This document shows, piece by piece, positions 13,168-62,155 of a stretch of DNA of 64,000 bases. Source of the DNA: Laetmonice hystrix (lineage: Eukaryota); the NCBI GenBank assembly GCA_965235115.1, contig OZ249436.1:16680001-16744000 (forward strand), given 5' to 3'. Position numbers and translations under genes: made by a program. The notes beneath the pieces were generated by a model that did not search any database, was not told the origin of the DNA, and saw nothing but the letters and a program-made list of their open reading frames with translations. Each line of letters opens with the position of its first letter. Position 1 is the stretch's first letter.

Positions 13168-16100
13168 ATGTCGAAAAGTAAGTTACATTTTAACATTTCA
13201 ATTTCAAATATTTTCTTCTTTCCGATTGTAGCTTAATATGATACAAGGAAGGCCTTTTTTGAAAAAAAATGTTGGCTGTGGATGAGGGAAATTGCCCTAG
13301 GATTTTGGTCACCTGGCGATGCAAGTACATTTTGTAGTTTATTTTTGTTGTAAGCGTTCGCTGAGTTGATCACCTAGCCAAGTCTGACTTATGTTTGTTG
13401 TAAGCGTCCCGCTAGTTGGTCACCTGACCGAGTCTAGTTTATCTTTGTTGTAAGCGTCCCTGTGTTGGTCACCTGGGGGTCTGTCGTACTAAGGATGATC
13501 CCCACAGCAAAATCCCCACCAAAGTGCCCAGATCAGGATTCCCCCGTTGTGAGGTATCTTACGAAAAAGTCCCTCCATTGAAACAGTGTTGGGGAGATGT
13601 GTCCGATTTGGGGATGTCCCTGATTTAGGGAGTGACATTCTTAATAAGACGGGCCCCAGGCCGAACCTGGCTTATGTTTGATGTAAGCGTCCCCTCAGTT
13701 GGTCACCTGACCGAGTCTGGTTTATGTTTGTTATATGTCTCATGGGAGATTGGACAGAGTCTAGTTTGTGTTTGTTGTAAGCGTCCCCTCAGTTGGTCAC
13801 CTGACCGAGTTTGGTTTAGGTTTGTTTTAAGGGTCCCCACAGTTGGTCACCTGGCCAGTTTGGTTACTCTTTGTTGTAAGCGTCCCCTCAGTTAGTCACC
13901 TGGCCGAGTCTCGTTTATCTTTGTTGTAAGCGTCCCGGAAGCGGCCCCTCAGTTGCCGGGAGACATCGATGATCGCCGCCATCGTGATCCTCATCCTGAT
14001 CGTCACTGTGCTCGTCGTCCTCGTGGCCGTGTTCGCCGGACGTTACCACAAGTCCCGCTCCAAAGAGTCCAAGCACACACCAGATGGCGTACGTAGCGAT
14101 GGGAAGATGGGAAGATTTCCAGGATTTGTCATTTTTAAGATCCATATTTTAGCCTGCCTTATCTTTCTCAATCGTAAAGCATATATTTCTGTTCACTCTC
14201 AGTTTGTGCGTGTTCACTTTCAGTTTTATTTTTATTTTTTGGGGGGGTGTTGGTGTTGGTTTGTGTTTACTGTCAGTTGGTTTGTGTTCACTGTTAGTTT
14301 GTTTGTGTTCACTGTTAATTGGTTTGTGTTCACTGTCAGATGGTTTGTGTTCACTGTTAGTTGGTTTGTGTTCACTGTTAGTTGGTTTGTGTTCACTGTT
14401 AGTTAGTTTGTGTTCACGGTAAGTTGGTTTGTGTAGGACCAGAAGTCGAGGGTTTGCGTGACGGCCGACTGTGTGGAAGTGGCGGGGAAGACCATCGCTA
14501 ACATGAACACGTCTGTCGATCCGTGCAAGGACTTCTATCAGTATGCCTGCGGTCGCTTCGTGAAGGACGCCCTTCTCAAACAGAATGAAGACATTACAGA
14601 TCTTGGAATATATCATATTAATTCCCAAACCGATGCAAAACTTGTCATGGTAACTTTGATTTAGACTGGATAAGTGAAAGCAATACATAAGACAGATAAA
14701 TTACGTACGCACACAGGCCTACATATAGGCCATCCGAAAAAAACGAATATAAATGTATAAACACACTTAAAGGGATGTACCTCCATGGAATGAAACCAGT
14801 ACCAGGGAAAACTTTAACATTTACAATGCGACTGTAGTTCCAGCAACTGCTTCAGTAAAAGAAACATCCCAAAACCTACAAAATGTATATTTCCCACACA
14901 TTTCAGGGATAAGCTACTCGTTTGCTACAAAAGAAATAGAAATCTTGCTGACACGTTAGTGTCCACCAAACTACATCTATTTGGACATTCTCGAAAACCT
15001 GATGCCAGGGCATTATTTTCAGATTAATTCTATCTATCATAAATATATAACTTATATAACCAGAACCTTTAAGCTCTTCCCCAAATATTTTCGGAGCAGG
15101 TATTGGAATCTCCAGGGGCGACAGTCAATGGAAAGAAATCGACCGCGGTCGAGAAAGCCAAACGTTTTTATGCTGCCTGCCGGAATGCTACATCAAAGAG
15201 AAACAATGGTCCTGCATTTTTACAAAAGGTGATTTCTCTTCGGTTGACCTTTTGTTTCCAATTTTGCTTGTTCTTAAGAGATAGCCACAACTCTATGAAG
15301 TCGGTCCTGCTGATGTTGGAATCTTCTCACTCCTCACCATGTGTTTAACCGACTCTGTTACAGAAAGTAAAGAAGGACCTTTTTCCGACATAACTCCTAC
15401 TTAGGCCTACACCAACATTAACGATGATTGGGGGTTGAATTAAATAAAGAGGCGGGAAATGAATTGATAGGATGTGTTTTATTAGATGATTGTATAAATT
15501 GTCGCTATTTTTATGCAGTATATTGACAGTCTGGGTGGATGGCCGCTGTCTGGGTATTTTGACTCCGGGCTGGCTGACGTAGAGCTTACGGCAGCCAAAG
15601 TGGCAAGGACTGGGAGTTCGGGTCTACTCACCGTGGACATGGGTGTCAACGATTTCAACAACAGCAGATACATCACAAGGTTCATATTGGTTGTATCAGT
15701 CCTCTCCAGGAGTAGAACCCTAACTAGTATATTTTTCCAGGTGCTAGTGCTCACTGCCCCCTCAGTGACGTAGCCAGGAATTAGTGAAAGGGGGGGGGGG
15801 CGTAAAGAGGGAGCGTAATTTTTTTTAAGGAAAATCTGACAAGCAAGCAAAAAAAAAGTCTTTAACAATGCAAAAACAGAAAAGAGAAGCGAAACGGGGG
15901 GCGTACGCCGGGTACGCCCTATGGTAGCTACGTCACTGCCCCTGTATACCCATGCACGGGCTTGCTTTTGGACTGACTATACTTGGTACTACTGCATGTT
16001 CTTCGATAGGGGGCCTATGCAACAATACGCTACATTCTTACAAGAATATATTGTTTATAGTCTGTTCGCTCTAAGAAGAGCTGGACCTCGGCCTCATTAA

Positions 16101-19100
16101 AGCTCTGACCTGCCCCCCTCTTCCCGTCTACCCACAGCTGGCGTAACACAAGTCATCGCCGCCTGTCATTCAAGAATATGACCAAATTTCACGTGGTTCT
16201 GTATTACCCCAAATGAACTAACAGCTTTAATGAGGCCGAGGTCGAGCTCTTCTTAGAGCGAACAGACTATAGTACAACATCTTTTGGATGAGCATACAGG
16301 AGCATAATGGGTATTATATTCCAGGGTACAGCCCGGCGTGTCCGCCCTTCGGAGTGCACGCCCCTACGACAGCACGGACACGATGGACAAGTATCGGTCT
16401 GTGATAGAGGGCGTGGTCAAGCTGCTGGGTGGCGACGTTACAATGAAGGCCTCTGTCATCAATGACGTCATCAACATTGACAAGGCCGTCGCAAAGGTTG
16501 AGCCGCAATGAAGGCCGTTTCGATATTTGGTCTTAGATATGACGTCGACTTGACGACCCGCATGTAGCACAATGTTATTCAATCGGATGTTGAAAGGAAA
16601 ACAGCGATTGCGTACGATTGACAAACATAGACTTCCTCGGGCTTGTGTTGTTGGTCTGACGTCACATTTTAACGAGATATAGGCTATACTGACATAATCT
16701 TGACCTGATGTCTGTTTCAGATCCGTCCACCTCCAAATATCCGTGACAACGTGACGCTCAGGAGTAACATGATGACCTTACGGGAGGTGGAGAACCGTGT
16801 CGGACCTAAGGTATTCATTTTGACAGGATTGCTGATTGGGGGAAGGGACCCTGACAGGCCTTCAGCTCCCACCCACAATTAAATGAAACGGGCATTTGGC
16901 TCATTTCAAAAGTTTTTCAGTCAGGATTTCAACAGAAAGAAACTTCATTCAACTGAGATATCAAATAGTTCCATGTAGGATGTAAGTGCATATCATTTTA
17001 CGGCGCGTTGCAAGTTGCATGCCTTGATGTTTTGTCAGCCGACGAGCTTTTACTCCAATGTACCTTACTGAGCACGGCTTGACGTGGCATTGGCACGCTA
17101 GAAACCCGAACGTGTTCGTGCACGTGTACGGGTACGAGCTACAAGTACACGTATGAACCTGTAATCTTGTACTTTAGATACACGTAAAATGACCGGACGT
17201 GTAGGCCTAGGTGTACGTGTAGAATCGGAAGTAGATAAAAAAAAACATGGCGTCCTTGCCACTCCACTGATGTGGTCTTTTTGAGATGGTCAGGTGCACA
17301 ATGTACAAAAACTATCCACTCTCCTAAGCGCCAATGTGAGCTGTCCCGCGTGCTGTAGGACTGTTGTTCGATAGGCGCATAGCCCGTGGAGAAAGATTGT
17401 CAAAAACCTCGCTCTAGTTAAAAGTATTATAGGGAAGACACATCTCAATTTAGTCAAGGACATGACAAAGAATGATAATGACTTGTTATTATACGGTCGT
17501 TCGGTTCCCGTGGCAGACATCTGTATGTTATGAAACAGGAGTTTTTGCTACACGTTTCATATTTACTGGTAGCGGACCGTCCACGCGTCGTTGACTTCTA
17601 GATGAACTTGTCGGGTTTGGGGAAATCCCCTATGGGTCGCGAAAATCTATGACGTATTACACGGGAATTCCGCTACGCCTACACGTAGGCGTACACGTTC
17701 GGGTTTCTAAACCTCAGTGTTGGCCATTTCTCGGGTTGATCCTAAGGAAATATTTCCGAGAAGCCAGTAGAGGTACAAAGTGTAGTTTAAGTCGCCAGTA
17801 GAAGTACAAAGTGTGGTTTAAGTTGCCAGTAGAGGTACAAAGTGTGGTTTAAGTTGCCAGTAGAGGGACAACGTGTGGTTTAAGTCGCCAGTAGGGGTAC
17901 AAAGTGTGGTTTAAGTCGCCAGTAGAAGTACAAAGTGTGGTTTAAGTCGCCAGTAGAAGTACAAAGTGTGGTTTAAGTCGCCAGTAGAAGTACAAAGTGT
18001 GGTTTAAGTCGCCAGTAGCTCTAGGTACAAAGTGTGGTTTGATGTGTCATAAGATTTTTCTTTATAATTTCTCTAGTTCATGATGGGAACCTTTCTCGAA
18101 AGATTTCTGGAGTCTTCAATTCCTCCGACAAGCAGTCTTCTGGTTGGGTTTCCCAGCTTCCTGCCTGGAATAAAAGTGATATTTGACGACTACTCCAAGG
18201 AGTAAGTCATGCCCTTCATTACTACAAGATCTCTTGACGGCAGTCTTTCTCCGTCTGCAATAACCATACTGATTGTTGATATTGCAGGTCGGCGATTGCT
18301 TACCTGGTGTCATCTTGAGTTGTCAAGTGGCATCATGCATCCTGCATTCTACCCCTTGAGATCAGCCCAGTCTAAACTGACGGAGGTTGACCTTGAGGTC
18401 AACTTCATGAATATTAATAGGACCTGGCATCGTCGTCATAGATTCGCCACCAACACTAAACGGTCTTCTCGCGAAAGTGCCCGATAGCATAAGCTTTTGC
18501 CTTGCCCAGTTCGCTGATATACAAATGTTTCCCTCCCTGACAATACAGTTTGTAGCACTCTGACTTGATATACGGTTTAACACGCGAAATTCCCAATTTG
18601 ATCTCCCCTGATTTCAGCGTCGTCACTACGCTTTAGCTGTCATCCGAACACCGGCCTGCTCGGCCCAGTGTCGCCGGCGCTGGCTGTTGGTCTCGGCCTC
18701 TGCCGCGCTCGGGGGTTAAGGTTAAGGGTCGGGATAGGATTTATAGTTATAGTGTGTGTTCTTGAAGCCCTGTCAACTCAAAGTTGCTCCTCCCACTGTC
18801 AGGATGTAATGCCTACCCGTTGCTGCCATCGTTGACTTCGCCATCTTGTTTCGACAATAACTTTGCTTGGGATGTTCCCGAAATGCAAGCTTATTTTTAT
18901 GAATCGCACCTCAGGCAGTGCTGTAATCTGATTGCTTCGCGCGGTACCGCAAGAAAAATTATTAGGTCGTAAACAGATGGCGATCTTTCTTCGCTGAAAA
19001 AAGCCTGGCTGTCGTGGTGGTGGGGAGGGGGGGGGGGCGCTCGAAGCGGTTCAACCCCGAAGGCGGGAGTATGACCAGGGCCCGGTTCTTAAAATCTTAA

Positions 19101-22100
19101 GATCTTACTTAAGTTTAGGCTTAACGCTTCTGATTGGCTGCTGGTCTAAGCAGACCAGCCAATCAGAAACGTTAAGCCTAAACTTAAGTAAGATTTTAGG
19201 AACCAGGCCCTGGTTTGGGAGGCAGTCTTTAGCCGCCTTTAATATCTGTTCAAATCGTTCACCGATATCTATAAATTTCTTTCATCCTTTGACCCCTGTT
19301 ACCTGGTGCAAACCCATTTTTATAACATTTTTTTATGGCACGATGGAAACTGGAAACTTTTATAACACGCCTTCGCTTAGTGCAATATCTTGTAAATTTT
19401 CATACTGCACTTAACCAGGTGCATTTTTGTATAAAATTGCAGGTCAGTGATTGCCTACCTGGTGTGGAAGGCAGTCTTTAGCCGCCTTCAATATCTGTCC
19501 AAACCGTTCACCGATCTCTACGCTGAGTTGCAACCAAAAGTCGACTTTTCTCCAGCTACCTGCCTTCGACTCGCCAAAACCTACTTCTCTCAGGCTCTCG
19601 GCTCAGTCTATTTGGAATTCTTCTACGACAAGAGGACGAATGCCGCTGTAAGTAGGCAGTTCGCAAAGCATCATTCAACAATTTATTAATTGAAACCCTA
19701 AAATATTATTTTGAAATCTGATGTTATGCAGATCGAGGAGATGCTGGTGCGAGTTCGCCAGGCGTTCCAGGACAACCTGCCCTCAGTCGACTGGTTGGAC
19801 GAGGCCGACCAGCAGACGGCCCTCGAGAAAGTCCGTGCCATGACGTACCAAGTCGCTTATTTTGACATCAGTGTGGACGCCGCGTCCCTCGACAGGGCCT
19901 ACCAGTTTTATGTGAGTTTATAACGTTACGGAAGCCCTTGACAGGAGCTACCATTTCTAAGTGAGTTTACAAACCCACGGGGGCCTTCGAAAGGGCCTAC
20001 TGGTTCTATGTTAGTTTACACACTCACGGGTCCTTCGACAGGGCCTACTTATTCTATGTGAGATTTCAATGTCACGGGGCCTTAGACAGGGCCTAGATCT
20101 ACTAGTTCTATGCGACCTTTCAATGTCACGGAGACCTTCGACAGGGCCTACTAGTTCTAAGTGAGTTTCCAATCCTCGTATTTCTCTATTCATATTTCTA
20201 CATAATTATGTAGATTAGCAGATTTTAAATGTCTTCCTGTTCTAGGGGCCTATCCTGGAGGACAACTTTTTCGCTACCATTAACAACCTCGAGCAAGGAA
20301 AGGTTAAACGTCAACTTACACTACAAGGGGAGCCCGCCACTGTCCCTTCTTACCTATTTGGGTACGTAAAACTGTGACGTCAGAACGTAAGGGGCGTGAC
20401 GTCAGTGCAAAACTATTTTAGGAATGCATTCAAACTTTCAGAGAAAGACAGGCAATGGGTGTGAGGGAGGCAGATGGATGTGAGGGAGACAATGGGTGTA
20501 AGGGAGACAGACAGGCAATGGGTGTGAGGGAGACAGACAGGCACTGGGTGTGAGGGAGACAGACAGGCACTGGGTGTGAGGGAGACAGACAGGCACTGGG
20601 TGTGAGGGAGACAGACAGGCAATGGGTGTGAGGGAGACAGACAGGCAATGGGTGTGAGGGAGACAGACAGGCACTGGGTGTGAGGGAGACAGACAGGCAA
20701 TGGGTGTGAGGGAGACAGACAGGCACTGGGTGTGAGGGAGACAGACAGGCAATGGGTGTGAGGGAGACAGACAGGCAATGGGTGTGAGGGAGACAGACAG
20801 GCAATGGGTGTGAGGGAGACAGACAGGCAATGGGTGTGAGGGAGACAGACAGGCAATGGGTGTAAGGGAGACAGACAGGCAATGGGTGTAAGGGAGACAG
20901 ACAGGCACTGGGTGTGAGGGAGACAGACAGGCACTGGGTGTGAGGGAGACAGACAGGCACTGGGTGTGAGGGAGACAGACAGGCAATGGGTGTGAGGGAG
21001 ACAGACAGGCAATGGGTGTGAGGGAGACAGACAGGCAATGGGTGTGAGGGAGACAGACAGGCAATGGGTGTAAGGGAGACAGACAGGCACTGGGTGTGAG
21101 GGAGACAGACAGGCACTGGGTGTGAGGGAGACAGACAGGCAATGGGTGTGAGGGAGACAGACAGGCAATGGGTGTGAGGGAGACAGACAGGCACTGGGTG
21201 TGAGGGAGACAGACAGGCACTGGGTGTGAGGGAGACAGACAGGCAATGGGTGTGAGGGAGACAGACAGGCAATGGGTGTGAGGGAGACAGACAGGCAATG
21301 GGTGTGAGGGAGACAGACAGGCAATGGGTGTAAGGGAGACAGACAGGCACTGGGTGTGAGGGAGACAGACAGGCACTGGGTGTGAGGGAGACAGACAGGC
21401 AATGGGTGTGAGGGAGACAGACAGGCAATGGGTGTGAGGGAGACATACAGGCAATGGGTGTGAGGGAGACAGACAGGCACTGGGTGTGAGGGAGACAGAC
21501 AGGCAATGGGTGTGAGGGAGACAGACAGGCAATGGGTGTGAGGGAGACAGACAGGCACTGGGTGTGAGGGAGACAGACAGGCACTGGGTGTGAGGGAGAC
21601 AGACAGGCAATGGGTGTGAGGGAGACAGACAGGCAATGGGTGTGAGGGAGACAGACAGGCAATGGGTGTGAGGGAGACATACAGGCAATGGGTGTGAGGG
21701 AGACAGACAGGCAATGGGTGTGAGGGAGACAGACAGGCAATGGGTGTGAGGGAGACAGACAGGCATTGGGTGTGAGGGAGACAGACAGGCACTGGGTGTG
21801 AGGGAGACAGACAGGCATTGGGTGTGAGGGAGACATACAGGCAATGGGTGTGAGGGAGACAGACAGGCACTGGGTGTGAGGGAGACAGACAGGCAATGGG
21901 TGTGAGGGAGACAGACAGGCAATGGGTGTGAGGGAGACAGACAGGCAATGGGTGTGAGGGAGACAGACAGGCAATGGGTGTGAGGGAGACAGACAGGCAC
22001 TGGGTGTGAGGGAGACAGACAGGCAATGGGTGTGAGGGAGACAGACAGGCACTGGGTGTGAGGGAGACAGACAGGCAATGGGTGTGAGGGAGACAGACAG

Positions 22101-25100
22101 GCACTGGGTGTGAGGGAGACAATGGGTGTGAGGGAGACAGACAGGCAATGGGTGTGAGGGAGACAGGCACTGGGTGTAAGGGAGACAGACAGGCAATGGG
22201 TGTGAGGGAGACAGACAGGCAATGGGTGTGAGGGAGACAGACAGGCAATGGGTGTGAGGGAGACATACAGGCAATGGGTGTGAGGGAGACAGACAGGCAC
22301 TGGGTGTGAGGGAGACAGGCAATGGGTGTGAGGGAGACAGACAGGCACTGGGTGTGAGGGAGACATACAGGCAATGGGTGTGAGGGAGACAGACCAACAA
22401 TCGGTGTGAGGGAGAGAAACAAACGTTTCTGATTGCAGAGAATACGGACCATACTTCCCCAACGCCTTCTACATGGCCATCAAGAATTCGATGGTAGCTT
22501 TGGCTGGTATCTTGGATTATGCATTTTACGACGAAGATTTCCCTGTGTGAGTGGAAAATTCCATTATTATATATGACAAATATGTAATCGACTCTCTCTT
22601 TTGACGCAGGAATGCAGATGTTAACCTCATTTCCGGTTCACATGTTTCCTCAGTTTCATAAAAACGACGTTTCAAATGGCAAAATATCTATTACATTCTC
22701 TTTCTTGTAAGATCTGGTTCCGAATTTAAATATATATATATATATATTTATATTTTAGAGTCATTAAAGCAAAAGAGAGTAAGACTTAAGATTTAAGACT
22801 TAAGAAATTATGAGTGTTTCTTCATTTTTCTTGGGGCAGTGGCATGAAGTACGGTGGTATCGGATTTGTGCTGGGCCATGAGATAACGCACGGATTCGAC
22901 AACAATGGCAAGTAATTTAAGTCCCCGTCACGCACACACGCACACATTTATACATGGGGGAGGGGAGGGGTGGGAGGTGACATCACGGGTAAGAAAAAAT
23001 ACATAATATCGCTCGGATGTGAACAAGTAAAGTCCATAGCACACTTTCGCCAGAGGTCCTTTTTGCTGAAACCTCCTTTGGTTGTGTATTGTTGGATAAC
23101 CCGGGACTATAGTGTCAGTGCGAGCAGTTACTTAGGCCTACATTTCTTTCATTTTTCTTAAGGATTTAAATGTAACTAATGTGACATGAAACAGTTTCAA
23201 TGCAAACTACTTTGTTGAACTATTTCTTACCTCTTCACTGCATTTCTGTCTCTTGGGTACTCCCTTTGACCGGCGTATGTCGTTACGATTGCATGTTGGA
23301 ACACGTTCTCACCATTCCAGACCGGCAGGGTCGTAGGCTCTAGACTACGAGCATGCGCAGTTCATAGCGTTATAGAAGGAAACCATCTCCTATCATGCAG
23401 AAGGGCTCGCTCCGCTTACCCTCTGCTACACATGACTTTTTACGGGCAAAATCGAACCCCTACGCGTTTAACCCCGTTTTTGCAAAGTTGGCCGTCCTGT
23501 ATGGTATCTGTAAAATGTAACGTACCTCTAAATCCCAAAAAAACTGAGAGTATATTAAGTGACATTCACCGTACAAGAGAAATATCTGATGAAATATTAG
23601 GAACTACATTTGCGGAGGGAAATCAGCTAGTTGCAAGTCGGTTGGCCAATTTCGGGATGATTCGAAATACTTCGGGTAGGTAGGCTACTTCCGTTCCAAC
23701 ATAGCGGCTGCAGATGATTTCTCCGAAGAACTGGATGTTTGCGTGACATCATAATCTGAGAGTCTGCTCCAAGTAACTAACAATAGTGCTTCAGCAAAGC
23801 CAAGGGTCACTCAAACTGCAGTACCCAATGTGTGGCAAAGATTGAACGAAGGGAACGATCTCTGTCCGGAGAGGGGGAAGGAAAGTGCCTACGCCCGGAC
23901 TATTCGGCCACCGGCTTTCGGTCACTTTTTTGTTTCTTCCTCTAGGCCTAAACATCGGCAGCGTCTTAGGTGACCATGTCATATTCTTACTTACTTCGAG
24001 CTCTGTATTTGCTTCATATCAGCAAATTTGGTTAGATGCGTGATGTACTCTGCTGCAGGCAAGAATTATGATAAGAATGGAAACTATAAACAGTGGCTGA
24101 GTGGCGCCTCCCTGGCAAGGTTCGACAAGAGGGCGCAATGTTTGGTGAAACAATATGGTCAATACGAGGCTCTGCCAGGGAATAAGGTTTGTCATGACAA
24201 ACCTCTTTATGTAATCGTACAGTAGTGCTGTTGTCCCAGAATCTTCTCCTAAAAACACTCGGGATTCTCTTTGAATGATACTGCAAATTCATACAAGAAT
24301 AGCAAAGCATGGTTTACAACAATGGGCTTTCTTTAAAACCGATTTTTAGTTTATTGCCATGTTCAAAGACTATTTCAGTCAGAAACATCTGAATAGTTGT
24401 TCAACGCAGGTGAATGGTGAGCTGACCTTGCCGGAGAACATCGCCGATAATGGGGGTATCAAGATGGCATATAACGCCTACCAGAGTTGGCGGAAGGCCC
24501 GCGGTGACAAGCCGGGCCTCGAACCCACACTGCCCGGCCTCGATCTGACACGTGATCAGCTCTTCTTCATCGCTATGGCAACGGTAAAGCTCAACGGCCT
24601 TTGTCCTTTTGTGTGTACTGTGCCAGTAATTTAGAAGATTTCGATGAGATCACAAATGAAATTGGTGGACTATAAGGATAGATATCGCAGATAGATTGTA
24701 CTTTGTTACTGTAAACTATCTGTAAGAATTAAAGTGGTACAAACATCACAATTACTATGAAATTTTGTACCAGAAACCGTTTGTCGTCGTTCTGTAAAGG
24801 AACGGTTGTTGTAGAACCACGTGAACTGTCTGTAATCCGTGATCGAAATGACCAATTCAGCCTGTTTCTCCTGGCCATCTGTCTGCCAGTCGCCTTCCCT
24901 TCAGGGCCCACGAGCCAGATTTTGCTTACATCACGGGCAGCTTGATTCAAAATGTCAATATCTTTACAAATGTTAATTTATCAGTAACACCTATCCCGAA
25001 CACGTCTACAACTCACAATGATCTTTCTAACGTGCCGATATTTGCAGCCCTGGTGTACCAAGGCCACAGATAAAACTACTAAGGAGCTCCTGACCTTGGA

Positions 25101-25521
25101 TAAACACTCGCCACCCAGATACAGGTAAAATAGACACCCTCCAAGCAGGTCGGCAACACACAGTTCTCTTGAAATTATTGTTTGGCCTCTTCAAGAACTA
25201 TGATAAAATATGCATCTCTCTATACATTTTTGAAATTTGCATATTTGCATGAAAACGTTTTGGGGGATTACATAGTACATGATAGTGGTTAAATCGATGA
25301 CCACGACATATATATCCATTGATTACTGCTACTAAGTTTTAAATTGTCATTCGAATTACCGTTATTCTTTATCCATGGTTCACTAACAGTTTTCACTGAC
25401 ACATAGTCTCTCTTGTTTCAGGATAATTGGTGCTCTGAGAAACTACAACAAATTCTCCGAAGTCTTCAACTGTCCTGAAGGCAGCTACATGAATCCCAAG
25501 GATAAATGCATCATCTGGTGA
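13168..25521 (+). CDS. M13 family (neprilysin/ECE-like) zinc metallopeptidase, copy A, 737 aa; join(13168..13177,13931..14088,14437..14649,15100..15228,15519..15679,16325..16496,16721..16810,18077..18201,19443..19647,19732..19911,20246..20361,22439..22546,22840..22907,24059..24186,24410..24583,25048..25124,25422..25521)
   Basis: Short cytoplasmic tail plus TM ([22 protein letters not shown]); CxTxxC...[41 protein letters not shown]...HSPPRYR; FNCP..YMNP..KCIIW*. All exon phases are compatible; total 2214 nt. Intron 13 needs a GC donor. Confidence 0.9.
13343..13955 (+). repeat. 50-bp tandem array derived from the intron1/exon2 acceptor junction (copy A), interrupted by a TIR element at ~13476-13657
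   Basis: Unit TTTGTTGTAAG|CGTCCCCTCAGTTGGTCACCTGACCGAGTCTAGTTTATG versus the true junction TTTGTTGTAAG|CGTCCCGGAAGCGGCCCCTCAGTTG at 13930/13931. Confidence 0.85.
14257..14436 (+). repeat. 21-bp array (GTTGGTTTGTGTTCACTGTTA) ending at the exon 3 acceptor, copy A
   Basis: About 8 units; the last unit is GTTGGTTTGTGTAG|GAC. Confidence 0.9.
15763..15938. mobile_element. MITE, TIR CAGTGACGTAGC, apparent 5-bp TSD CCCCT
   Basis: CCCCT-CAGTGACGTAGC...GCTACGTCACTG-CCCCT. Confidence 0.75.
16056..16271. mobile_element. MITE with ~48-bp TIRs
   Basis: TATAGTCTGTTCGCTCTAAGAAGAGCTGGACCTCGGCCTCATTAAAGCT ... AGCTTTAATGAGGCCGAGGTCGAGCTCTTCTTAGAGCGAACAGACTATA. Confidence 0.85.
17099..17709. mobile_element. 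TIR element, ~610 bp
   Basis: TAGAAACCCGAACGTGT ... ACACGTTCGGGTTTCTA; absent from the homologous intron 7 of copies B and C. Confidence 0.7.
17762..18040. repeat. 31-bp tandem repeat (~9 copies) just upstream of the exon 8 acceptor, copy A
   Basis: GCCAGTAGAAGTACAAAGTGTGGTTTAAGTC. Confidence 0.92.
18280..19271 (+). pseudogene. Degenerate duplicate of exon 9 (pseudo-exon) split by inserted repeats, copy A intron 8
   Basis: TTGCAG|GTCGGCGATTGCTTACCTGGTGT (18282-18310) and CTGGTTTGGGAGGCAGTCTTTAGCCGCCTTTAATATCTGTTCAAATCGTTCACCGAT (19210-19266) match the start of real exon 9 (19443 on); CAA changed to a TAA stop. Confidence 0.75.
19074..19214. mobile_element. Short palindromic MITE (GGGCCCGGTT.../...AACCAGGCCC)
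   Basis: Near-perfect 140-bp hairpin. Confidence 0.75.
19886..20170 (+). repeat. Degenerate ~48-51-bp array derived from the exon10/intron10 donor junction (copy A, ~5 extra units)
   Basis: CCCTCGACAGGGCCTACCAGTTTTAT|GTGAGTTT re-iterated, e.g. CCTTCGACAGGGCCTACTAGTTCTAAGTGAGTTT at 20135-20168. Confidence 0.8.
20445..22415. repeat. 26-bp minisatellite (~75 copies) filling copy A intron 11
   Basis: GGGAGACAGACAGGCA(A/C)TGGGTGTGA; source of the three 650-680 aa minus-strand ORFs. Confidence 0.97.
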
Positions 25522-52212: not shown

Positions 52213-55200
52213 ATGTCGAAATGTAAGTAGTATTCTTTCACTTTTCGTTAGCTTTCTCATTAACAGAATCACATTCGAGGTGTTTCTGCCGGCCAGTTTT
52301 AGCATACCACTAACCCTGGACGATTAATAACACTTTTCGTTAGCTTTCTCACATTCAAAGTGTTTCTTGATGACCTTGATAATGACAGGGATGACCTTGA
52401 TAATGGTTATTTTGCCAATTTACTGAGCTTTATGGTCGCCCCCACTGGACTGGCACGTGCACGCCCATATTTATTTTCATCACTCTGCCCCGTGGGACAG
52501 GGGTGTCGGATGATCAATATAAACCGATGAGTAAACATGAAAAGTCTGCTCAGGTACTGAAGATGGCTAACAGTTGCACACATGTATCATGCCTTCCATC
52601 CATCCATCCATCCATCCATCCAGGCACACTGCCGATAGTGGCGGATGGGGATTCTGTCAGGTAAACCTTTCCAAACCTCCTGAACAATATGCAATGAATA
52701 ATTTGATATTTATGTAAAATAAACACCCCCTGCAGTGGTCGCATAATTGGGAGAGACTGATGAAAAGGGGGCGTCAATATAATTAAGATGGAACTTGAAA
52801 TTCGGTTAATTCTCTGTTAACTTCTGAATTAATCTCTGAGCTTAAAAAAACTTGGCTGGATGTATAATTTATTGCAAGTGGATCCTGGCCGAGTCTGCTT
52901 TATGTGTGTTCTAAGCGTCCCGGAAACGTCCCCTCAGTTGGTCACCTGACCTAGTCTGGTTTATGTTTGTTGTAAGTGTCCCATCAATTGGCCACCTGAC
53001 CGAGTCAGGTTTCTATTTGTTCCAATCGTCCCCTCAGTTGATCACCTGACCTAGTCTGGTTTATCTTTGTTGTAAGCGTCCCCTCAGTTGGCCACCTGAC
53101 CGAGTCTAGTTTGTAACCACACTCCTTCCCATGATCCTCTCCGTGCCTCGACTGTCACTGCCACAAGTGGCAAACTGGTTCCCTGCCTAGAGGAGTTAAG
53201 CAGGGACCCAGCCAGTGCCAGGCTGCCGGGACTATACTCCTCTGCTGTTTTCATGATGTCGTGAGCAATAAAGACTCCAAAAACCTTTTCTAATTTGTGG
53301 CTGAGGTTGTTACCTTGCCATCTCCTACCTCCTATTGTATCGTGCAAACAGCAAAAACATCCCACAGAAAATAATTTGACGGGCGATTTGTTGCCATGCT
53401 GTTTGCGCGGGATCCCCGCCCGGTGGAGTGAGCCCAACTTGGTGAGCCGTCTACGCGGAACGCGGAACGCGCGACCTGTTCACAACCGACAATGAAATAG
53501 TTCTTAAAATAAATGCGATGGGATGTATTCGGGATAGAACATATCGTGTTGATGCTGGTTTATTATGTGATATTTAAACATTTTAAACACTATTGGTGAA
53601 ATCTAGCTCATACGGTTCCTATTTTAGGTGTATATGAACTTTGTGGCTGTCGACCACCAAATGTGCAAGTTGTGGCAGTGAGACTTGAGAGAACCGAGAG
53701 GCTCATGGGAAGGAGTTTGGTTGTAAACATCTCCTCAGTTGGTCACCTGACCGAGTCTAGTTTATGCTTGTTGTAAGCGTTCCCTCAGTTGATCACCTGA
53801 CCGAGTCTAGTTTATATTTGTTGTAAATTCCCCTTCAGTTGGTCGCCTGGCCGAGTCTAGTTTATCTTTGTTGTAAGCGTCCCCTCAGTTGGTCACCTGA
53901 CCAAATCAGGTTTCTGTTTGTTTTAAGCGTCCCGGAAGCGGCCCCTCAGTTGCCGGGAGACATCGATGATCGCCGCCATCGTGCTCCTTTTCCTGATCGT
54001 CACTGTGCTCGTCGTCCTCGTGACCGTGTTCGCCGCAAGTTACTACAAGTCCCCCTCCAAGTACAAGAAACTTGGCGATGCAATCAGTGTCAGTTATCGT
54101 CATTATACATATAACTTTTTGTTTCTACGGCAAAATTAAAACTTTTGAATCCTTGTCGTTAGACAGTGATATTTCAAAGGTGTATGGATCAACTTCTATG
54201 AAATACAATGATCGAGGACGGTCTGAGGATAATGCACGCCAAACAGATTTTTGATTTATCATTCAAAATGGCCGGTGGGTGGCCATCTTGGATGTAAACA
54301 CATTTGGAGAAATAACCTGGAAAAACGATCTGGATTTCATTCAAATAAGGCAAATACTGTGTTAGTTGGTTTGTGTAGTGTCCGTTTCTGTTTACTGTTA
54401 GTTTGTTTCTGTTCACTGTTAGTTGGTTTGTGTTGACTGTAAGTTGAATTGTGTTCACTTTTAGTTGGTATGTGTTCACTGTCAGTTTGTTTGTGTTCAC
54501 TGTTAATTGGTTTGTGTTCACTGTCAGATGGTTTGTGTTCACTGTTAGTTGGTTTGTGTTAACGGTCAGTTGGTTTGTGTAGGGCCAGAAGTCGAGGGTT
54601 TGCGTGACGGCCGACTGTGTGGAAGTGGCGGGGAAGACCATCGCTAACATGAACCTGTCCGTCGATCCGTGCAAGGACTTCTATCAGTATGTCTGCGGTG
54701 GCTTCATGAAAAACACCATCCTCAAACAGGACGAACCGTTCATGGATTTGGGGCTAAAGTATATTGAAATCGAAACCCATGCAAAGCTCATCAAAGTAAG
54801 CTTGCTGAGAGAGACTCCTCCTCCTCCAAACGAAGTAATACACATGAAAACTCATTGATATTTACTGTACACCTATGTACGATTAAATACATACCTTATA
54901 TACGCACAAATATGACCATACTTTTTTTACAACTTCCTTCGTATTCTGCCGGAACAGGCAATGAAATCTCCAAGCACGATAATAAACGGGAAGCGATCAA
55001 CTGCAGTTCAAAAAGCGAAAAGCTTTTTCGCCGCCTGTCTGAACGTTTCATCAAACACAAATGATGGTCCTGGAATTCTACAAAAGGTAATGTTTCCCTG
55101 TTCTATAATATGGCTCATCTCGCGATTCCAAAACCTTTACTTGCGACATTACAGCAGCCAATTATTTCGCCGGTTTTACTGATACTTGAGTTGATTTCCA

Positions 55201-58200
55201 TGCTTTCGATACTTGTGCCCTCTGTACGCTTAGAGTATATCGCTTCTTGTTCCCTCTGTACCCATACAGTATATCGATACCTGTGCCCTCTCTACCCATA
55301 CAGTATATAGATACTTGTGCCCTCTCTACCCATACAGTATATCGATACTTGTGCCCTCTCTACCCATACAGTATATCGATACTTGTGCCCTCTCTACCCA
55401 TACAGTATATCGATACTTGTGCCCTCTGTACCCATACAGTATATCGATACTTGTTCCCTCTGTACCCATACAGTATATCGATACTTATTCCCTCTGTACC
55501 CGTACAGTATATCGATACCTGTGCCCTCTCTACCCATACAGTATATAGATACTTGTGCCCTCTCTACCCATACAGTATATCGATACCTGTGCCCTCTCTA
55601 CCCATACAGTATATCGATACTTGTGCCCTCTCTACCCATACAGTATATCGATACCTGTGCCCTCTCTACCCATACAGTATATCGATACTTGTGCCCTCTC
55701 TGTACCCGTACAGTATATCGATACTTGTGCCCTCTGTACCCGTACAGTATATCGATACTTGTGCCCTCTGTACCCGTACAGTATATCGATACTTGTGCCC
55801 TCTGTACCCATACAGTATATCGATACTTGTTCCCTCTGTACCCGTACAGTATATCGATACCTGTGCCCTCTCTACCCATACAGTATATAGATACTTGTGC
55901 CCTCTCTACCCATACAGTATATCGATACTTGTTCCCTCTCTACCCATACAGTATATAGATACTTGTGTCCTCTCTACCCATACAGTATATCGATACCTGT
56001 GCCCTCTCTACCCATACAGTATATCGATACTTGTTCCCTCTCTACCCATACAGTATATCGATACCTGTGCCCTCTCTACCCATACAGTATATAGATACTT
56101 GTGTCCTCTCTACCCATACAGTATATCGACAGTCTGGGTGGATGGCCGCTGTCCGGGTATTTTGATTCCGGGCTGGCTAACGTGGCAGTGACGGCAGCCA
56201 AGGTGGCAAGGATGGGAAGTTCGGGTCTCTTCGGCGTGGACATGGGTGTCAACGACTTCAATAACAGCAGATTTATAACTAGGTCTGCTATATACTACCT
56301 GAGCTCCTTATATAAAACAGCACAAACTATTTTTCTGACATAAACAGCTCCTAACGGTCCATACTACATCTCTATTCCAGACTAATGCCTACAATGCCAC
56401 CGCTACAGAGCCCAAGCGCCTACAATAGTACAGACGCGATGAACAAATATAGGACTCTTATCGAGGGCGTGGTCAAACTGTTGGGAGGTGACGTCACACT
56501 TCGAGCCTCCATCATCAATGACATCATCGACATTGACAAGGCAGTAGCAAAGGTGGGCCGCATAGGGCTATTGGAACAGCTCCTGCACATTTACCGTGAC
56601 AGTAGATGAAGGTGGACAATGATGTTTGTCATGTTACAGATGGTTCCGCCTCCAGCCATCCTGGGCAACGTGACGCTCAGGAGCAACATGATGACAGTCC
56701 AGAAAGTCCAGAACCTAATCGGACCTAAGGTGCCCGTATGGTAGGGGGAGTTCAAATAAATGGGGATAATTTCCTTGGCCCTGATTGGGGCAGTTATGTC
56801 ACACCGCCTTCTGCCAGGAACCAGTCAACTCCCCAGAGTTTTCTGAGGCTGAGCTGCTAATCTAAACGAATGAAAGGAAGCATTAATAAAATACCCAGCA
56901 CCTGATACCAAAGAAGATGTCTGAATAAAAGTCTAGTTGCTGCAATCAGTGTCATGAGCAGCACCAGCGTTTCTATAGTATCTCAATTTATTACTTACTT
57001 TATGACCCGTAATGAAGTGTGTAATTTTACGACAAATCGTATTTTTGTAAGGAACTGACTTAGATTTTAAGAGGGTAAAAATAATATCTCTATTTTTTCA
57101 GTTTATGATGGCAAACTTCCTAGAACATTTCCTGGGATATTCAATTCAACCGACAAGAAAAGTTCTGGTTGCGTTTCCTAACTTTTTGTCTGGAGTAAAA
57201 GCGATATTAGACAAATACTCCAAAGAGTAAGTAAAGTTTGCCATTATTAAAGATTATTGTAGAATATGCTGTTTGGTAGATATAATTTCTGCACAGTCGC
57301 ATATCACTCTATATGGTATTATAACAGATTGTTTCATGCGCTCTGATTGGTCGGATTCGGGTCACGTGGTATGAAATGGGTATCGAAATCGATCTATTTT
57401 CCCAGGGCATCGTCCCAAGGAAATAGATCGATTGTGGGTTGATTAACGTGGCATCAAAGGCAAAAGACTAATCCCCAATTGTACAGTCAACGTTTGTATA
57501 ATAAATTATGATTGTTTATATTATAGGTCTTCCATTGCCCTCATATCCAGTCAACGTTCGTATAATAAATTTTGATTGTTTATATTGTAGGTCTTCTATT
57601 GCTTATCTGGTCTGGGCGTCAGTGTATGCCCGCATCGACTTTCTCTCGAAACCGTTTACTGACCTGCTTGCTGAGGCCAAGCAGAAAGTCAACTTTGATC
57701 CAAACCTTTGTCTCCAACTGTCGAAGAAATATTTTACCCAGGTTATTGGTGCAATCTACGTCGAGCATTACTACGACAAGAGTGCCACCGCCAAGGTTAG
57801 TGTCAGTAGGAATCGTTATGGCAGGTATTTCAGTCATATTCAGGGCGATAGGAACCATTTCATTCAGCCACTTCATTTACCCCCGAGTCCCAGGGGGTGG
57901 GTGGCGAGGAGGACGAATTGAGAAAGAAACCTGCCACCGGGAGGCAATCCCTACCCTCCTCGAAAAATTGTAAGGGTGCTTTTACATTCCCAGTCGCACA
58001 GACACGGCTGGACATACCAAACCTTCGATGACCCAGTTGCAGAGCACTGGGGAGGGTCAGTGAGAAAACGGTACTGGAAGGATCGAAATCCGTCTGTGCC
58101 ACGCAGATGGTTTTGTACGCCGACACTCGACCACTTCCCCGCACCAGCCCTAGCTCCATTTGTCGTCTTGTCGCAGAGGCGTAGGAAGCACTTTAAAAGT

Positions 58201-61137
58201 GTGTGTGTGTGGGGGGGGGCAACAGGGCCATGCGCCGGATTTTTCGACGGGGATTACAGTTTGGCGGGTGCAGACTGGGCGAGCGCTGAAGGCGCGAAGC
58301 CATGCTAGGGGGGTCCGGGGGCATGCCCCCCGAAACATTTTGAAATTTATAGTGTAATTTGGTGACATTTGGTGCATCTTAGAGCACAAAATAAGGTCTG
58401 TAATGCGAGAAAATACCCCCATAGGCTTCCAATGGCAAAAGTCAAGGGGAGGGAAAAAGTGGGGGGACCAAAAGATACTCTGGCCCCCTCATTTCAAATT
58501 GGGGGGGCCATGCCCCCCCCCCCCCCCCCGGCCCCCTTTTTCTACGCCCCTGAGAGGTTGAGCTGAGGATCCTTCTTACCCCTGATTCCCAACGGGGTTA
58601 CTGGAGGGGTGCATGTGTAATTATGAATGTAAATGTGTCGTATGCATGTATTATGTATCATGCACTTGTGTTATAGGCCTTTTAATCAGCGAGTTCACTA
58701 TCCGGAAATTTTGGCTTATTTCCAGTTTTGTGCATTTACGTTTCCATCAGAGAATCAAGAAAATTGAAAGGATAATTACCTTACGCCTTTCCCCTCCGAA
58801 CTGTTATGCCAAAACATCGTTATGCGTGAACAAATACACCAAAGAAACATTTATTTTTTGGAACATCAAATTGTTATGTGTAGATCGAGGAGATGCTCGC
58901 GCGGGCTCAAAAAGCATTCCAGGACAAGCTGCCCTCAGTGGAATGGATGGACGAAGTCAGCAAGCAAAAAGCCTTTGAGAAACTCCGCGCCTTGAAACAC
59001 AAGATTTCCTACAATGACATCAATGTGGACGCAGCGGCCCTCGACAGAGCGTACCAGTTCTATGTGAGTTTACAACGTCACGGGGGCCCTCGACAAGGCC
59101 TATACTAATTCTGTGTGAGTTTACAACGTCACGGGAGCCCTCGACAAGACCTATACTAATTCTCTGTGAGTTTACAACGTCACGGGGGCCTCGACAAGGC
59201 CTATACCAATTCTGTGTGAGTTTACAACGTCACGGGGGCCCTCGACAAGGCCTATACTAATTCTGTGTGAGTTTACAACGTCACGGGGGCCCTCGACAAG
59301 GCCTATACTAATTGTGTGTGAGTTTACAACGTCACAAGTCCCTCGACAGGGCCTATGGATCTACTAATTCTGTGTGAGTTTACAACGTCACAAGTCCCTC
59401 GATAGGGCCTATGGATCTACTAATTCTGTGTGAGTTTACAACGTTACAAGTCCCTCGACAGGGCCTATACTAATTCTGTGTGAGTTTACGTCCCGGAGGC
59501 CCTCGACAGGGCCTATAATTCTATGTGAGTTTATAACGTGTTTATAACGTCACCGATGCAGCATTGGCCTCACTTTCCCATCAAATATCTTCGTTTTTAA
59601 ACAATATTCTGTTCACCTTTGTGCGTTGTCGACTTTGTTGAATGTATGCTCTATAACATCTTTCGTTTAGGGGCCTATCATAGAGGACAACTTCTTCGCT
59701 ACTATTAACAACGTTGAACAAGGGGCGTTCAAACATATGCTTTCCCAGCGCGGGAAACCTGTCACCGTCGCTTCAACTATTGCGTACGTAAAACCAAGTG
59801 TACGGATGGTTGGTTTGGGGGCATTTATAGTTAAGGTATGCAAAAAATAAGCCCTAAGATAAAACCATGGAACTATAGCTATAGTTCCATGGTAAAACTT
59901 TATTCAGGTATGTCAAGTTAATATACTAAACGCTAAGGGTAAACATTTCTCAAGTCTGCCAAAACGTTAAACTTTAAACAGGGATACCAAAACTACCTAC
60001 CCAAAGGTTAAACCTAAAACAGGGATACCAAAAATACCAAGGTTAAACTTCATACCAAAATACCAAATAATCAAGTAACCATGGGTTGAATATCGAATCA
60101 ACCACAAACAACGAATCAGATCAAAGAGAAAGCCAAAAGTTTTGCTTTTTAAGGGATGAGGCGCCAGATGTTGTCAACGCGGCTTACATGCCAAACATGA
60201 ACGCGATCATGACGTGGGCAAGCGTCCTTGGTTATGCAATTTACGACGAAGATTTCCCTATGTGAGTTAAACTTATCATTTATAAAACAAATGTTTACTT
60301 TTTATGGATTTAAATCACAAATATGGCTCTTAGAATCAGGTTGATTGTTTGATTAGATTAGTTGACTGTCAAGGGTAAGATGGTACTCAACGACACAAAC
60401 AGCTAGGGTAAATACAAACACCTGACTTCCAATTATGAAAAGTGGATGATCAACTTTAGATCTGCGCTTTAAAACTATGCCAACAATGCCTTTTTGATGC
60501 GAACTATATTCAAGTCATAATCAGAACAATTACACGGGACCAATCTCCCATGATCCTCGGTACACTCGTCTCTACCACACATGCCTTTTCACGGGCAGAA
60601 TCTGACCCCTTAATTTTGGCCATAGTGTGTGGTATTTGTAGATTTTAGCGTATCTCAGAATCCCCAAACCGAAAGTGTCAAGTGAATGTTTTTAACCGTA
60701 CAAGAGAAAAAATCTTGATGAAATATTAGTCGCAAGTTGGTGAGGGCCAGTTCGGCGCGATTCGGAATACTTCCGGTGTTTCTGACTACAGCTACTTCCG
60801 TCCCAATATGACAGATAATAGTGTTGAGGATTTCTTCGAAGACCTTAACAGTAAGCAACAAGAGTGTCTCAGCTATTTGTACATTTATATTGGAGCTCGG
60901 CAATGTTCGGCTGTGTCCATGTATTCGGGGATTTGTAGGTCAGTTCAGGGGGCACGCAAACGGTAGCACCCAATTTATGGAAGAGATAACGGAGTGCTTG
61001 GAAAATGAGAAAATGAGGGCATCTTTAGAAAGCGTGATAATTATTTTTTTCTTGATGTTGTTTGGACAGCGGCATGTTATATGGAAGCTCCGGATTCATG
61101 CTCGGCCATGAGATAACGCACGGCTATGACAGCACTG
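52213..61137 (+). CDS. M13 (neprilysin/ECE-like) metallopeptidase, copy C, 3'-partial (exons 1-13); join(52213..52222,53928..54088,54583..54795,54958..55086,56122..56282,56381..56552,56640..56729,57102..57226,57591..57795,58884..59063,59671..59783,60154..60261,61070..61137,...)
   Basis: Colinear with copy B, open through VNAAY and GHEITHGYD; exon 11 is one codon shorter. Exons 14-17 are not in the window, so an intact gene is not proven. Confidence 0.87.
52905..53950 (+). repeat. 50-bp exon 2 acceptor-derived array (copy C)
   Basis: Same unit as in A and B; the first unit CTAAG|CGTCCCGGAAACGTCCCCTCAGTTG keeps the full exon start. Confidence 0.85.
53116..53721. mobile_element. TIR element inserted in the copy C exon 2 acceptor array, apparent 4-bp TSD TGTA
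   Basis: TGTA-ACCACACTCCTTCCCATGA...TCATGGGAAGGAGTTTGGT-TGTA; imperfect TIR of about 55 bp. Confidence 0.75.
54362..54582 (+). repeat. 21-bp array ending at the exon 3 acceptor (copy C, ~10 units)
   Basis: GTTGGTTTGTGTTCACTGTTA; first and last units read GTTGGTTTGTGTAG. Confidence 0.9.
55205..56129 (+). repeat. 34-bp exon 5 acceptor-derived array (copy C, ~27 units)
   Basis: TACTTGTGCCCTCTCTACCCATACAG|TATATCGA repeated up to the real exon start at 56122. Confidence 0.93.
58174..58552. mobile_element. MITE (same family as 2778-3166, opposite orientation), copy C intron 9
   Basis: CAGAGGCGTAGGAAG...TTTCTACGCCCCTG; absent at the homologous position in copy B (~37190-37205). Confidence 0.85.
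59038..59552 (+). repeat. ~51-bp exon 10 donor-derived array (copy C, ~10 units)
   Basis: Same unit as 37709-39001. Confidence 0.92.
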
Positions 61138-61530
61138 GTAAGGGTTTCCATAACCTAATCACATCCAAGGTTGGTATTTCCATAACCTAATCACAAGGTT
61201 GCTGTTTCCATTACCTAATTACACATATGGTGAGTGTTTAAATAATCTAATCACATCCCTGGTAGGGGTTTCCATTATCATAATCTCATCCAAGGTTGGT
61301 GTTTCCATTATGTAATCTCATCCAAGATTGGTGTTTCCATTATCCAATCACATCCAAGAATGGTGTTTCCATGATCTAATCTCATCCAAGATTGGTGTTT
61401 CCATTATCCAATCACATCCAAGAATGGTGTTTCCATGATCTAATCTCATCCAAGATTGGTATTTCCATTATCTAATCTCATCCAAGGTTGGTGTTTCTAA
61501 TCACACCCAAGATTGGTGTTTCCATTACCG
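61138..61530 (+). repeat. 32-bp array starting at the exon 13 donor (copy C, ~12 units)
   Basis: GATTGGTGTTTCCATTATCCAATCACATCCAA, period 32. Confidence 0.85.
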
Positions 61531-61636: not shown

Positions 61637-62155
61637 AGGGAGCCGTAAAATTCATTTTTTTCGATTTATGGCAGTCTTAGAAACATATGATTCGCATACC
61701 TAGGACTCCCAGTAACATCATGTGAGACTGTTATAGCCCAGCGACCAGTATTTAGTAAGGAAAATATGCCAAATCTCTCGCAAATACGTAGCTCAGAATT
61801 AGCGAGCGGCCCACAGGATATTTGAGTTGGCCGCGGTCGGGCGATGATGACGCGTGATCACGTGACTTCCGGGTGTACATGCGGTATTTAGGTCAACGCT
61901 AGACTAGAGGGAGATTCCCTTCCACACCCGGAAGTCACGTGATCACGCGTCATCATCGCCCGACCGCGGCCAACTCAAATATCCTGTCGGCCGCTCGCTA
62001 ATTCTGAGCTACGTATTTGCGAGAGATTTGGCATATTTTCCTTACTAAATACTGGTCGCTGGGCTATAACAGTCTCACATGATGTTACTGGGAGTCCAAG
62101 GTATGCGAATCATATAGACTGCCATAAATCGAAAAAATGAATTTTACGGCTCCCT
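61637..62155. mobile_element. TTAA-flanked near-perfect palindromic element (Kolobok-like AGG...CCT ends)
   Basis: Arms of about 240 bp (61637-61876 / 61924-62155) around a spacer of about 47 bp. Confidence 0.88.

Follow-up and report, generated by a model that had tools for sequence, protein, structure and literature searches.

Probable mirage minisatellites at the exon edges of three M13 peptidase paralogs

Three paralogous genes in the window, the whole stretch of 64,000 nucleotides analysed here, raise the question of how introns come to be filled with tandem copies of their own splice junctions and how the correct site is found among them. The predicted proteins possess a hydrophobic N-terminal segment and the motifs HEITH and ENIAD, which we take to be features of M13 (neprilysin/ECE-like) metallopeptidases. 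Matches to the Pfam M13 domains PF05649 (Peptidase_M13_N) and PF01431 (Peptidase_M13) were found in all five exons tested, two of which exceed the curated cut-off individually; when a 58-aa M13 exon was used as query in a weak homolog search, none of 97 candidates matched at E<=1e-10. The three genes are:

13168-25521, + strand: M13 peptidase gene A, 17 coding exons
29585-45175, + strand: M13 peptidase gene B, 17 coding exons
52213-67089, + strand: M13 peptidase gene C, exons 1-13 at 52213-61137, exons 14-17 past the window end

When the exon-side copies are used, each open reading frame is intact, comprises 17 exons and 737-738 aa and ends in a single terminal stop. Exon count and phase are identical in A, B and C, and all introns are GT-AG, except for one GC-AG intron (A intron 13). 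A spliced aligner that was given the protein of B found all 17 exons of gene A, in addition to two spurious 3-nt exons. Judged from reading frame and paralog homology, the exon-side unit would be the working splice site.

To detect copies, each junction +/-30 nt was aligned to the intron it borders, with 60 randomly drawn segments for every junction as control. Junction copies score 35-79 and the control maxima are 15-30, which confirms the claim of an earlier note on this DNA that introns of the three paralogs contain tandem copies of their own exon edges. The following copies and arrays were located:

13337-13936, + strand: A exon 2 acceptor array, 50-bp unit (~44 intron + 6 exon nt), two blocks, 7 extra copies
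14255-14434, + strand: A exon 3 acceptor array, 21-bp unit, intron side only, ends 2 nt short of the exon
18273-19272, + strand: A exon 9 acceptor and exon start, single copy (18273-18310 plus ~19211-19272), interrupted by a dispersed repeat
19884-20172, + strand: A exon 10 donor array, ~50-bp unit, 4 extra copies
30860-31727, + strand: B exon 2 acceptor array, two blocks (30860-31012 and 31589-31727)
34153-35105, + strand: B exon 5 acceptor array, 34/36-bp unit (26 intron + 8 exon nt), 26 extra copies
36503-36626, + strand: B exon 9 acceptor, two-copy duplication of 64 bp, AG of the upstream copy lost
37708-39004, + strand: B exon 10 donor array, 51-bp unit (~26-28 exon nt), 23-24 extra copies
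42297-42576, + strand: B exon 13 donor array, 32-bp unit, intron side
44730-45056, + strand: B exon 16 donor array, degenerate 33-bp unit
52886-53933, + strand: C exon 2 acceptor array, two blocks, 6 extra copies
54361-54580, + strand: C exon 3 acceptor array, 21-bp unit, intron side
55206-56129, + strand: C exon 5 acceptor array, 34-bp unit, 26 extra copies
57497-57602, + strand: C exon 9 acceptor, two-copy duplication of 64 bp, AG of the upstream copy intact
59036-59539, + strand: C exon 10 donor array, 51-bp unit, 8-9 extra copies
61138-61522, + strand: C exon 13 donor array, 32-bp unit, mostly intron side

The units are 21-64 bp long and lie head-to-tail in 2-27 copies. At the acceptors of exons 2, 5 and 9 and the donors of exons 10 and 16, they span the boundary as had been described, each copy carrying 6-28 exon nt together with intron nt; the 5'-most copy of the B exon 2 array retains 25 exon nt. 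At exon 9, however, the term array does not apply, since each gene has just one extra copy. The arrays at the exon 3 acceptor (A and C; 0/4 copies crossing in each) and the exon 13 donor (B and C; 0/4 and 1/9) merely abut the junction, in agreement with the intron-side character ascribed to them; an exon 3 array is absent from B. The total copy numbers reported for A/B/C, ~5/25/10 at the exon 10 donor and 0/27/27 at the exon 5 acceptor, were upheld by alignment and motif counts. Extra copies in A/B/C amount to 7/5/6 at the exon 2 acceptor, 0/26/26 at the exon 5 acceptor, 1/1/1 at the exon 9 acceptor and 4/23/9 at the exon 10 donor. For the exon 16 donor, alignment yields 0/2/7 and motif counting 0/8/13; alignment is too strict for decoy counts in diverged M13 arrays, which were therefore counted by motif. 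Two further candidates looked junction-like by eye and were rejected: a 56-bp array after B exon 15 failed the alignment test against random segments, and both arrays of a neighbouring galactosyltransferase-like gene start 31-148 nt from junctions. The M13 genes also contain arrays without any relation to a junction (17763-18040, 20490-22415 and 43861-44307).

Arrays common to the paralogs are inherited, and the number of independent births in the M13 genes is therefore about eight, common by descent and not repeated in each gene. The earlier note had drawn its inference from the number of junction-anchored arrays; the three paralogs are not independent. The single exon 9 copy in A is a separate, longer duplication than those of B and C; the dispersed repeat inserted in it (~18312-19210) resembles 9616-10400 by eye. 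The junction units themselves are not a transposon-borne dispersed repeat: when 159 arrays were compared across 864 kb, no M13 junction unit matched an unrelated locus, and the 14 arrays that had such matches include a 21-bp and a 10-bp array in B intron 12. The M13 family is an incidental host of these arrays, because in the seven further M13 genes of the genome 3/16 arrays are junction-spanning, compared to 2.0 expected.

The structure itself is already known from amphioxus and from a human VNTR. According to the available portions of two reports (PMC3087553, PMC3902484), the mirages of amphioxus Adh3, the globins BflGb6 and BflGb9, troponin C and PGBD5 resemble the arrays described here in that the unit straddles the border between exon and intron at one end or the other; the units are 10-160 bp long, many copies keep GT/AG, and copy number varies. 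RT-PCR revealed no aberrant mRNA, and splicing was apparently unaffected, as stated in part of PMC3087553. In those portions the mirages are described at single loci, whereas the present analysis covers 49 genes and gives the frequency of such arrays, a null model and an asymmetry between donors and acceptors. The host also differs, being a spiralian and probably an annelid: the neighbouring INTS1 shows 45% identity to B. belcheri and groups with mollusc and nemertean sequences (98% SH-aLRT), and the neighbouring TMEM184B groups with Capitella (99%) in a tree without deuterostomes, which suggests that the host sits with annelids and not with lancelets (cephalochordates). In human F7, the real donor lies in the first unit of a 37-bp VNTR in intron 7, a layout shared with the exon 10 and exon 16 arrays, and the identical downstream pseudo-donors are functional yet unused (PMC1557585, in part). 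F7 is, however, one locus with donors only and 5-9 copies, whereas up to 25 donor and up to 27 acceptor copies are found here. Variable internal tandem repeats in human segmental duplications are likewise exon-border minisatellites whose number differs between recent paralogs; according to the part of PMC2812944 available, many of them give rise to new introns or to alternative transcripts that RNA data support, whereas exon count and phase are constant here. The available portions of PMC2632668 and PMC12783039 do not describe junction-spanning arrays.

Beyond the M13 paralogs, minisatellites are abundant and locus-specific in this genome. In 49 other genes with 922 introns and 1,844 junctions, 214 introns contain an array, and 55 of 145 independent arrays span a junction (34 donors, 21 acceptors). 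Random birth in repeat-collapsed introns predicts 31.4 (P<1e-5), an excess of ~1.75-fold. The spanning arrays correspond to 3% of junctions and occur on 13 of the 15 contigs sampled. The excess was seen in three separate gene sets (28/68 vs 15.5, 13/38 vs 7.0 and 14/39 vs 9.0 expected), the two later ones replicating it with P=0.008 and P=0.03. A null with uncollapsed intron length was rejected, as it inflates the enrichment (9.3 expected vs 41 observed). The size of the excess depends on the null chosen, that is, on intron length at birth, and geometry by itself predicts over half of the spanning arrays.

Selection seems to have left a trace in the form of two absences. No array was found inside exons in 70 kb of exon interiors, where 14-18 would be expected at the intronic rate; homology-based annotation may conceal exonic arrays and by construction prefers the exon-side copy. 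Acceptor units with fewer than 18 intron nt, which omit the pyrimidine tract, are scarce (2/21 arrays vs 8.1 expected, P=0.002), whereas donor units of this kind occur as expected (17/33 vs 16.4). The 18-nt threshold was set post hoc after the first 16 acceptor arrays, and in the held-out acceptor set the deficit is not significant (1/5 vs 1.9 expected, P=0.35).

The decoy copies are mostly well preserved. In 40 non-M13 arrays, GT/AG is intact in 435 of 482 decoys, and 349 score at least as high as the real site; two acceptors have very low scores and are possibly misplaced. Just 48 of these decoys are in frame without a stop. A stop is encountered from all exon 10 donor decoys tested (4/4 in A, 23/23 in B and 9/9 in C). 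The AG is kept in 26/26 exon 5 acceptor decoys of B and of C, and 9/26 of those in B are in frame and stop-free, as is a 72-bp cadherin donor array; in such cases, decoy use could be tolerated or real. The splicing machinery likely ignores the decoys. For donors, the choice of site has an experimental answer in one case: in part of PMC1557585, only the most upstream of 5-9 identical donors of human F7 intron 7 is used. This scanning result does not extend to the acceptor arrays. The acceptor step would rest on exon definition, because first-come scanning would predict the wrong, upstream acceptor. Under exon definition, an acceptor paired with a full exon downstream would be preferred.

Taken together, the arrays are probably mirage minisatellites, that is, 20-70 bp stretches overlapping a splice site and copied in tandem, which arose from ordinary local duplication and were kept where splicing finds the exon-side copy. 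The minisatellites that fill introns include junction-spanning ones, whose units overlap junctions more often than under random birth, to an extent that depends on the null. Selection would then purge exonic duplications as well as acceptor duplications whose last copy lacks its own pyrimidine tract. Position rather than strength would decide which site is used, a rule tested for a human donor alone, the winners being the donor that directly follows the exon and the acceptor next to the full exon. Rare use of a decoy would mostly lead to a frameshift or stop and thereby to nonsense-mediated decay. Arrays older than the gene duplications were passed on to the paralogs, as the shared arrays of the M13 genes indicate. 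Changes in array length would belong to normal minisatellite turnover. An adaptive function would be unnecessary.

How far the junction excess requires a bias of its own is a matter of intron length and base composition. Births may have been uniform, with the excess arising from geometry and survival in introns that were shorter when the arrays originated (later insertions, or decayed units missed by TRF). This reading is possible, albeit doubtful: geometry already yields 31.4 of the 55 arrays, and with collapsed length capped at 253, 200 or 150 nt the expectation rises to 41.8 (P=0.008), 46.7 (P=0.07; excess 1.18x) and 55.3, where no excess is left. The enrichment over random placement expected from the earlier note therefore stands under the collapsed null and vanishes if introns measured ~150 nt at birth. 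However, the median repeat-free intron length of 253 nt exceeds the lower caps, and the excess is kept in collapsed introns of <=300 nt (28/55 vs 17.8 expected). GC weighting raises the expectation from 23.9 to 27-29, with 41 observed, and the excess persists (P<=0.002 for all 106 arrays, P<=0.009 for short introns); GC bias thus accounts for part of it only. It would be somewhat less probable that a dedicated process at exon edges, such as breakage or slippage where nucleosome or methylation boundaries lie or where splicing occurs co-transcriptionally, drives most births. Array starts are denser at junction-spanning positions (0.71 per kb) than within introns (0.20-0.26 per kb), and donors show an excess (23 vs 10.5) next to a shortfall close behind the intron start (5 vs 12.2), but 90 of the 145 arrays are not junction-spanning, GC explains part of the excess, and donor units are uniform in phase instead of sharing one fixed position at the splice site (KS P=0.71). 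Because the units contain intron bases, spliced mRNA cannot have been the template. On a tentative reading, a roughly two-fold mutational bias might seed minisatellites at exon edges, the survivors recording the rules of splicing (any phase for donors, an own pyrimidine tract for acceptors). The suggestion of the earlier note that a mutational process favours junctions, or that selection tolerates solely duplications which leave an exon edge intact, is thus partly supported by the junction excess, the empty exon interiors and the scarce short-intron acceptor units, but over half of the spanning arrays need neither.

A functional role, in which decoys tune expression via unproductive splicing or give length-variant proteins, appears improbable. 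Intact, strong and partly in-frame decoys would suit it, and human exon-border VNTRs can produce alternative transcripts (PMC2812944, in part); however, the intactness follows from recent amplification (TRF match of 86-98% in most arrays), unit lengths show no bias to multiples of three (14/40 arrays), and arrays were gained or lost between paralogs with intact reading frames (0/27/27). That the arrays are inflated by assembly, or that B and C represent two haplotypes of a single gene, is hardly credible. The contigs of one sample, which may be the source of the assembly, reach the array edges and none covers a whole array, but the units carry ordered variants and the same arrays occur in diverged paralogs. 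B and C differ by 6.6% in coding sequence and 10% in introns, compared to ~0.3-0.6% between the sample contigs and the window (1.8-2.0 kb near A), and B-specific contigs have depths of 45/66/64 vs 31-45/58-68/55-72 for A, depth being a rough guide.

Read as mirage minisatellites, these arrays turn a set of single-locus reports from amphioxus into a countable, genome-wide class in a distant phylum. They mislead gene predictors: two cadherin arrays were misread as exons by a spliced aligner, and a public Branchiostoma INTS1 model contains a ten-fold repeat of 24 residues, which matches the first part of an exon found here. The asymmetry between donors and acceptors provides a footprint of selection on splicing that can be tested. 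First-come scanning does not explain the choice of the last of 27 equally strong acceptors, which makes these loci ready-made minigene substrates. If the bias reading is true, ~3% of junctions would be natural tandem-splice-site experiments, amounting to thousands of loci, and exon definition and scanning could be tested against each other within one invertebrate.

The three paralogous M13 peptidase genes carrying the junction arrays were annotated by hand and checked by script:

13168-25521, M13 gene A
29585-45175, M13 gene B
52213-67089, M13 gene C (exons 14-17 beyond the window)

Each gene has 17 exons, identical intron phases and an intact frame of 737-738 amino acids, and five of the five exons tested match Pfam M13 domains. 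Identity between B and C is 93% in coding sequence and 90% where introns can be aligned, compared with 80% and 73% between A and B. Contigs of one sample, possibly the assembly's source, diverge by only about 0.3-0.6% from the window near A, and the depth of B-specific contigs is, as a rough guide, similar to that over A; B and C thus appear to be genuine paralogs. The intron following exon 13 of A is of the GC-AG type (22907-22909); B and C have GT there, with a 32-bp array. Exon 2 (13931-14088 and 31722-31882) has 96% identity in A and B, against 65-90% for the other exons, and the exon 3 array is common to A and C at 85%, though most introns are unalignable. This may reflect gene conversion, or else tighter constraint towards the 5' end of the genes.

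Copies of a junction were sought by aligning its ±30 nt to the intron it belongs to, and 60 random segments per junction provided the null; copy numbers are as assembled, since no contig of the single sample spans an array. Extra copies in A/B/C amount to 7/5/6 for the exon 2 acceptor, 0/26/26 for the exon 5 acceptor, 1/1/1 for the exon 9 acceptor, 4/23/9 for the exon 10 donor and 0/2/7 for the exon 16 donor (0/8/13 by motif), in agreement with the copy numbers of the earlier note. Its placement of the exon 3 and exon 13 units is also borne out, as the exon 3 acceptor arrays (A, C) and exon 13 donor arrays (B, C) copy the intron side only; however, the exon 3 array is absent from B, and exon 9 carries a two-copy duplication rather than an array, which in A is a separate event interrupted by an insertion. 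The acceptor of C exon 8 gave one weak match (score 24 versus a null of 20). The junction arrays are real, but they are not independent across the three genes: arrays common to paralogs align with each other and were inherited, so that the cluster holds about eight array births. In the exon 2 acceptor array, the 5'-most copy in B (30890) and C (52916) keeps 25 exon nt, and a stretch of 11 nt flanked by short runs of C is missing from later copies, which suggests a single duplication, followed by deletion and then amplification.

For a genome-wide test, genes were annotated with a purpose-written spliced profile aligner, which recovered all 17 A exons from the B protein, plus two spurious 3-nt exons. 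INTS1, TMEM184B, ABC transporters, seven other M13 genes and a cadherin were covered; junctions were kept only where the flanking alignment was confident, giving 922 introns of 49 genes on 15 contigs with A, B and C excluded, and 214 of these introns contain an array. Two low-scoring genes and five cadherin introns above 2 kb were omitted, and two cadherin exon ends were manually placed at the first copy of the repeat. The first two gene sets yielded 251 arrays including those of A, B and C, of which 45 between-paralog duplicates and 25 dispersed arrays were dropped; removal of the A, B and C arrays, periods outside 15-200 and arrays with fewer than three copies left 106. In the third set, four duplicates and four dispersed arrays were dropped from 66, and 39 passed the same filter. 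The null placed one unit randomly along the intron with its arrays collapsed.

Arrays whose unit crosses the exon-intron junction numbered 28 of 68 in the first set (15.5 expected), 13 of 38 in the second (7.0; P=0.008) and 14 of 39 in the third (9.0; P=0.03), or 55 of 145 pooled (31.4; P<1e-5). They occur on 13 of the 15 contigs and at 3% of the 1,844 junctions; with 4 of 32 junctions each, genes B and C are towards the top of the range. How large the excess is depends on how long the intron was when its array arose: capping this length at 253 nt, the repeat-free intron median, raises the expectation to 41.8 (P=0.008), at 200 nt it is 46.7 (P=0.07), and at 150 nt it reaches 55.3 and the excess is gone. 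With GC weighting, 27-29 of 41 are expected instead of 23.9. Geometry therefore yields more than half of the spanning arrays, and a modest excess over random intronic placement, the enrichment that the earlier note proposed to test, probably remains.

Two patterns look like marks of selection. Exon interiors (70 kb) contained no arrays, compared with 14-18 expected at the intronic rate, although homology-based annotation could hide some. Donor units are cut by the junction at uniform phase, and 17 of 33 carry fewer than 18 intron nt (16.4 expected; one array whose exon overlap exceeds its period was excluded), whereas only two of 21 acceptor units do so (8.1 expected; P=0.002). For the first 16 acceptors, thresholds of 15, 18, 20 and 25 nt were tried and gave P=0.017, 0.003, 0.005 and 0.001; the five held-out acceptors gave one below 18 nt against 1.9 expected, the same direction but not significant (P=0.35). 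Acceptor units in A, B and C carry 26-52 intron nt. An acceptor unit lacking the pyrimidine tract would leave the full 3' signal at the first copy only; the exon would then lengthen, and such an allele would be eliminated.

In 40 non-M13 arrays, GT/AG is intact in 435 of 482 decoys, the intronic copies of the splice site, and 349 score at least as high as the real site with matrices built from repeat-free junctions, in line with the earlier claim of a choice among near-identical sites. Judged from these sequences, position and not strength must pick the site. Only 48 of the 482 are in frame without a stop; in the M13 genes, all exon 10 donor decoys tested reach a stop (4/4, 23/23 and 9/9 in A, B and C), and use of an exon 5 acceptor decoy would do no harm for 9 of the 26 in B and for none of 25 in C. 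Reed and Maniatis reportedly found in 1986 that, among duplicated splice sites, the one next to the complete exon is chosen, and acceptor choice may likewise favor the copy beside the full exon. Mis-spliced transcripts would be expected to decay. Donor choice by position is shown in human F7, where the most upstream of 5-9 identical donors alone is used (PMC1557585).

Of the 264 kb surrounding the window, 32% is masked by Tandem Repeats Finder. An inverted-repeat element in B intron 12 (39892-42109) has two arms that carry mirror-image arrays of 21 bp and 42 bp units; its 21-bp unit recurs at another locus, and similar mirrored arrays lie at 11303-12270 and 47184-49295. A near-perfect palindrome of about 260 bp (by eye) in C intron 13 (61781-62040) is probably a MITE. 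In a Fringe/galactosyltransferase-like gene (4445-8900, minus strand), presumably of the core 1 type, 40-bp and 20-bp arrays fill two introns, next to an intron with a 580-bp AAG tract. The cadherin gene (minus strand), which lies outside the window, has a donor-spanning array of thirteen 72-bp units at about 136700-137650, counted in window coordinates; this array is in frame and stop-free and could thus be read into protein; a 51-bp array at about 112270-114210 behaves in part similarly.

The neighboring INTS1 gene, with 44 predicted exons, is 45% identical to that of Branchiostoma belcheri. In a quick tree of 18 rows, it groups with snail and nemertean (98% SH-aLRT), and Branchiostoma INTS1 with shark and hemichordate; TMEM184B groups with Capitella at 99% (27 rows, no deuterostomes in the tree), and no deuterostome is named among its best 120 matches. 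A lancelet affinity was ruled out by these groupings, and the host lineage is spiralian, probably annelid. The public B. belcheri INTS1 model contains a 24-residue block ten times (residues ~710-950), which agrees with the beginning of one INTS1 exon in Laetmonice hystrix and is probably an acceptor mirage, a minisatellite whose unit overlaps a splice junction, modelled as exons.

Mirages were named in amphioxus, where units span either boundary, copy number varies and splicing is undisturbed by RT-PCR (PMC3087553, PMC3902484). Variable repeats at exon borders are also described for human segmental-duplication paralogs (PMC2812944). No annelid or lophotrochozoan mirage or genome-wide enrichment test was found in the literature searched, mostly papers outside subscription journals. 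Taken together, the junction arrays of A, B and C are real and their structure is already known; the junction excess and the asymmetry between donors and acceptors are the parts that specialists might find useful.
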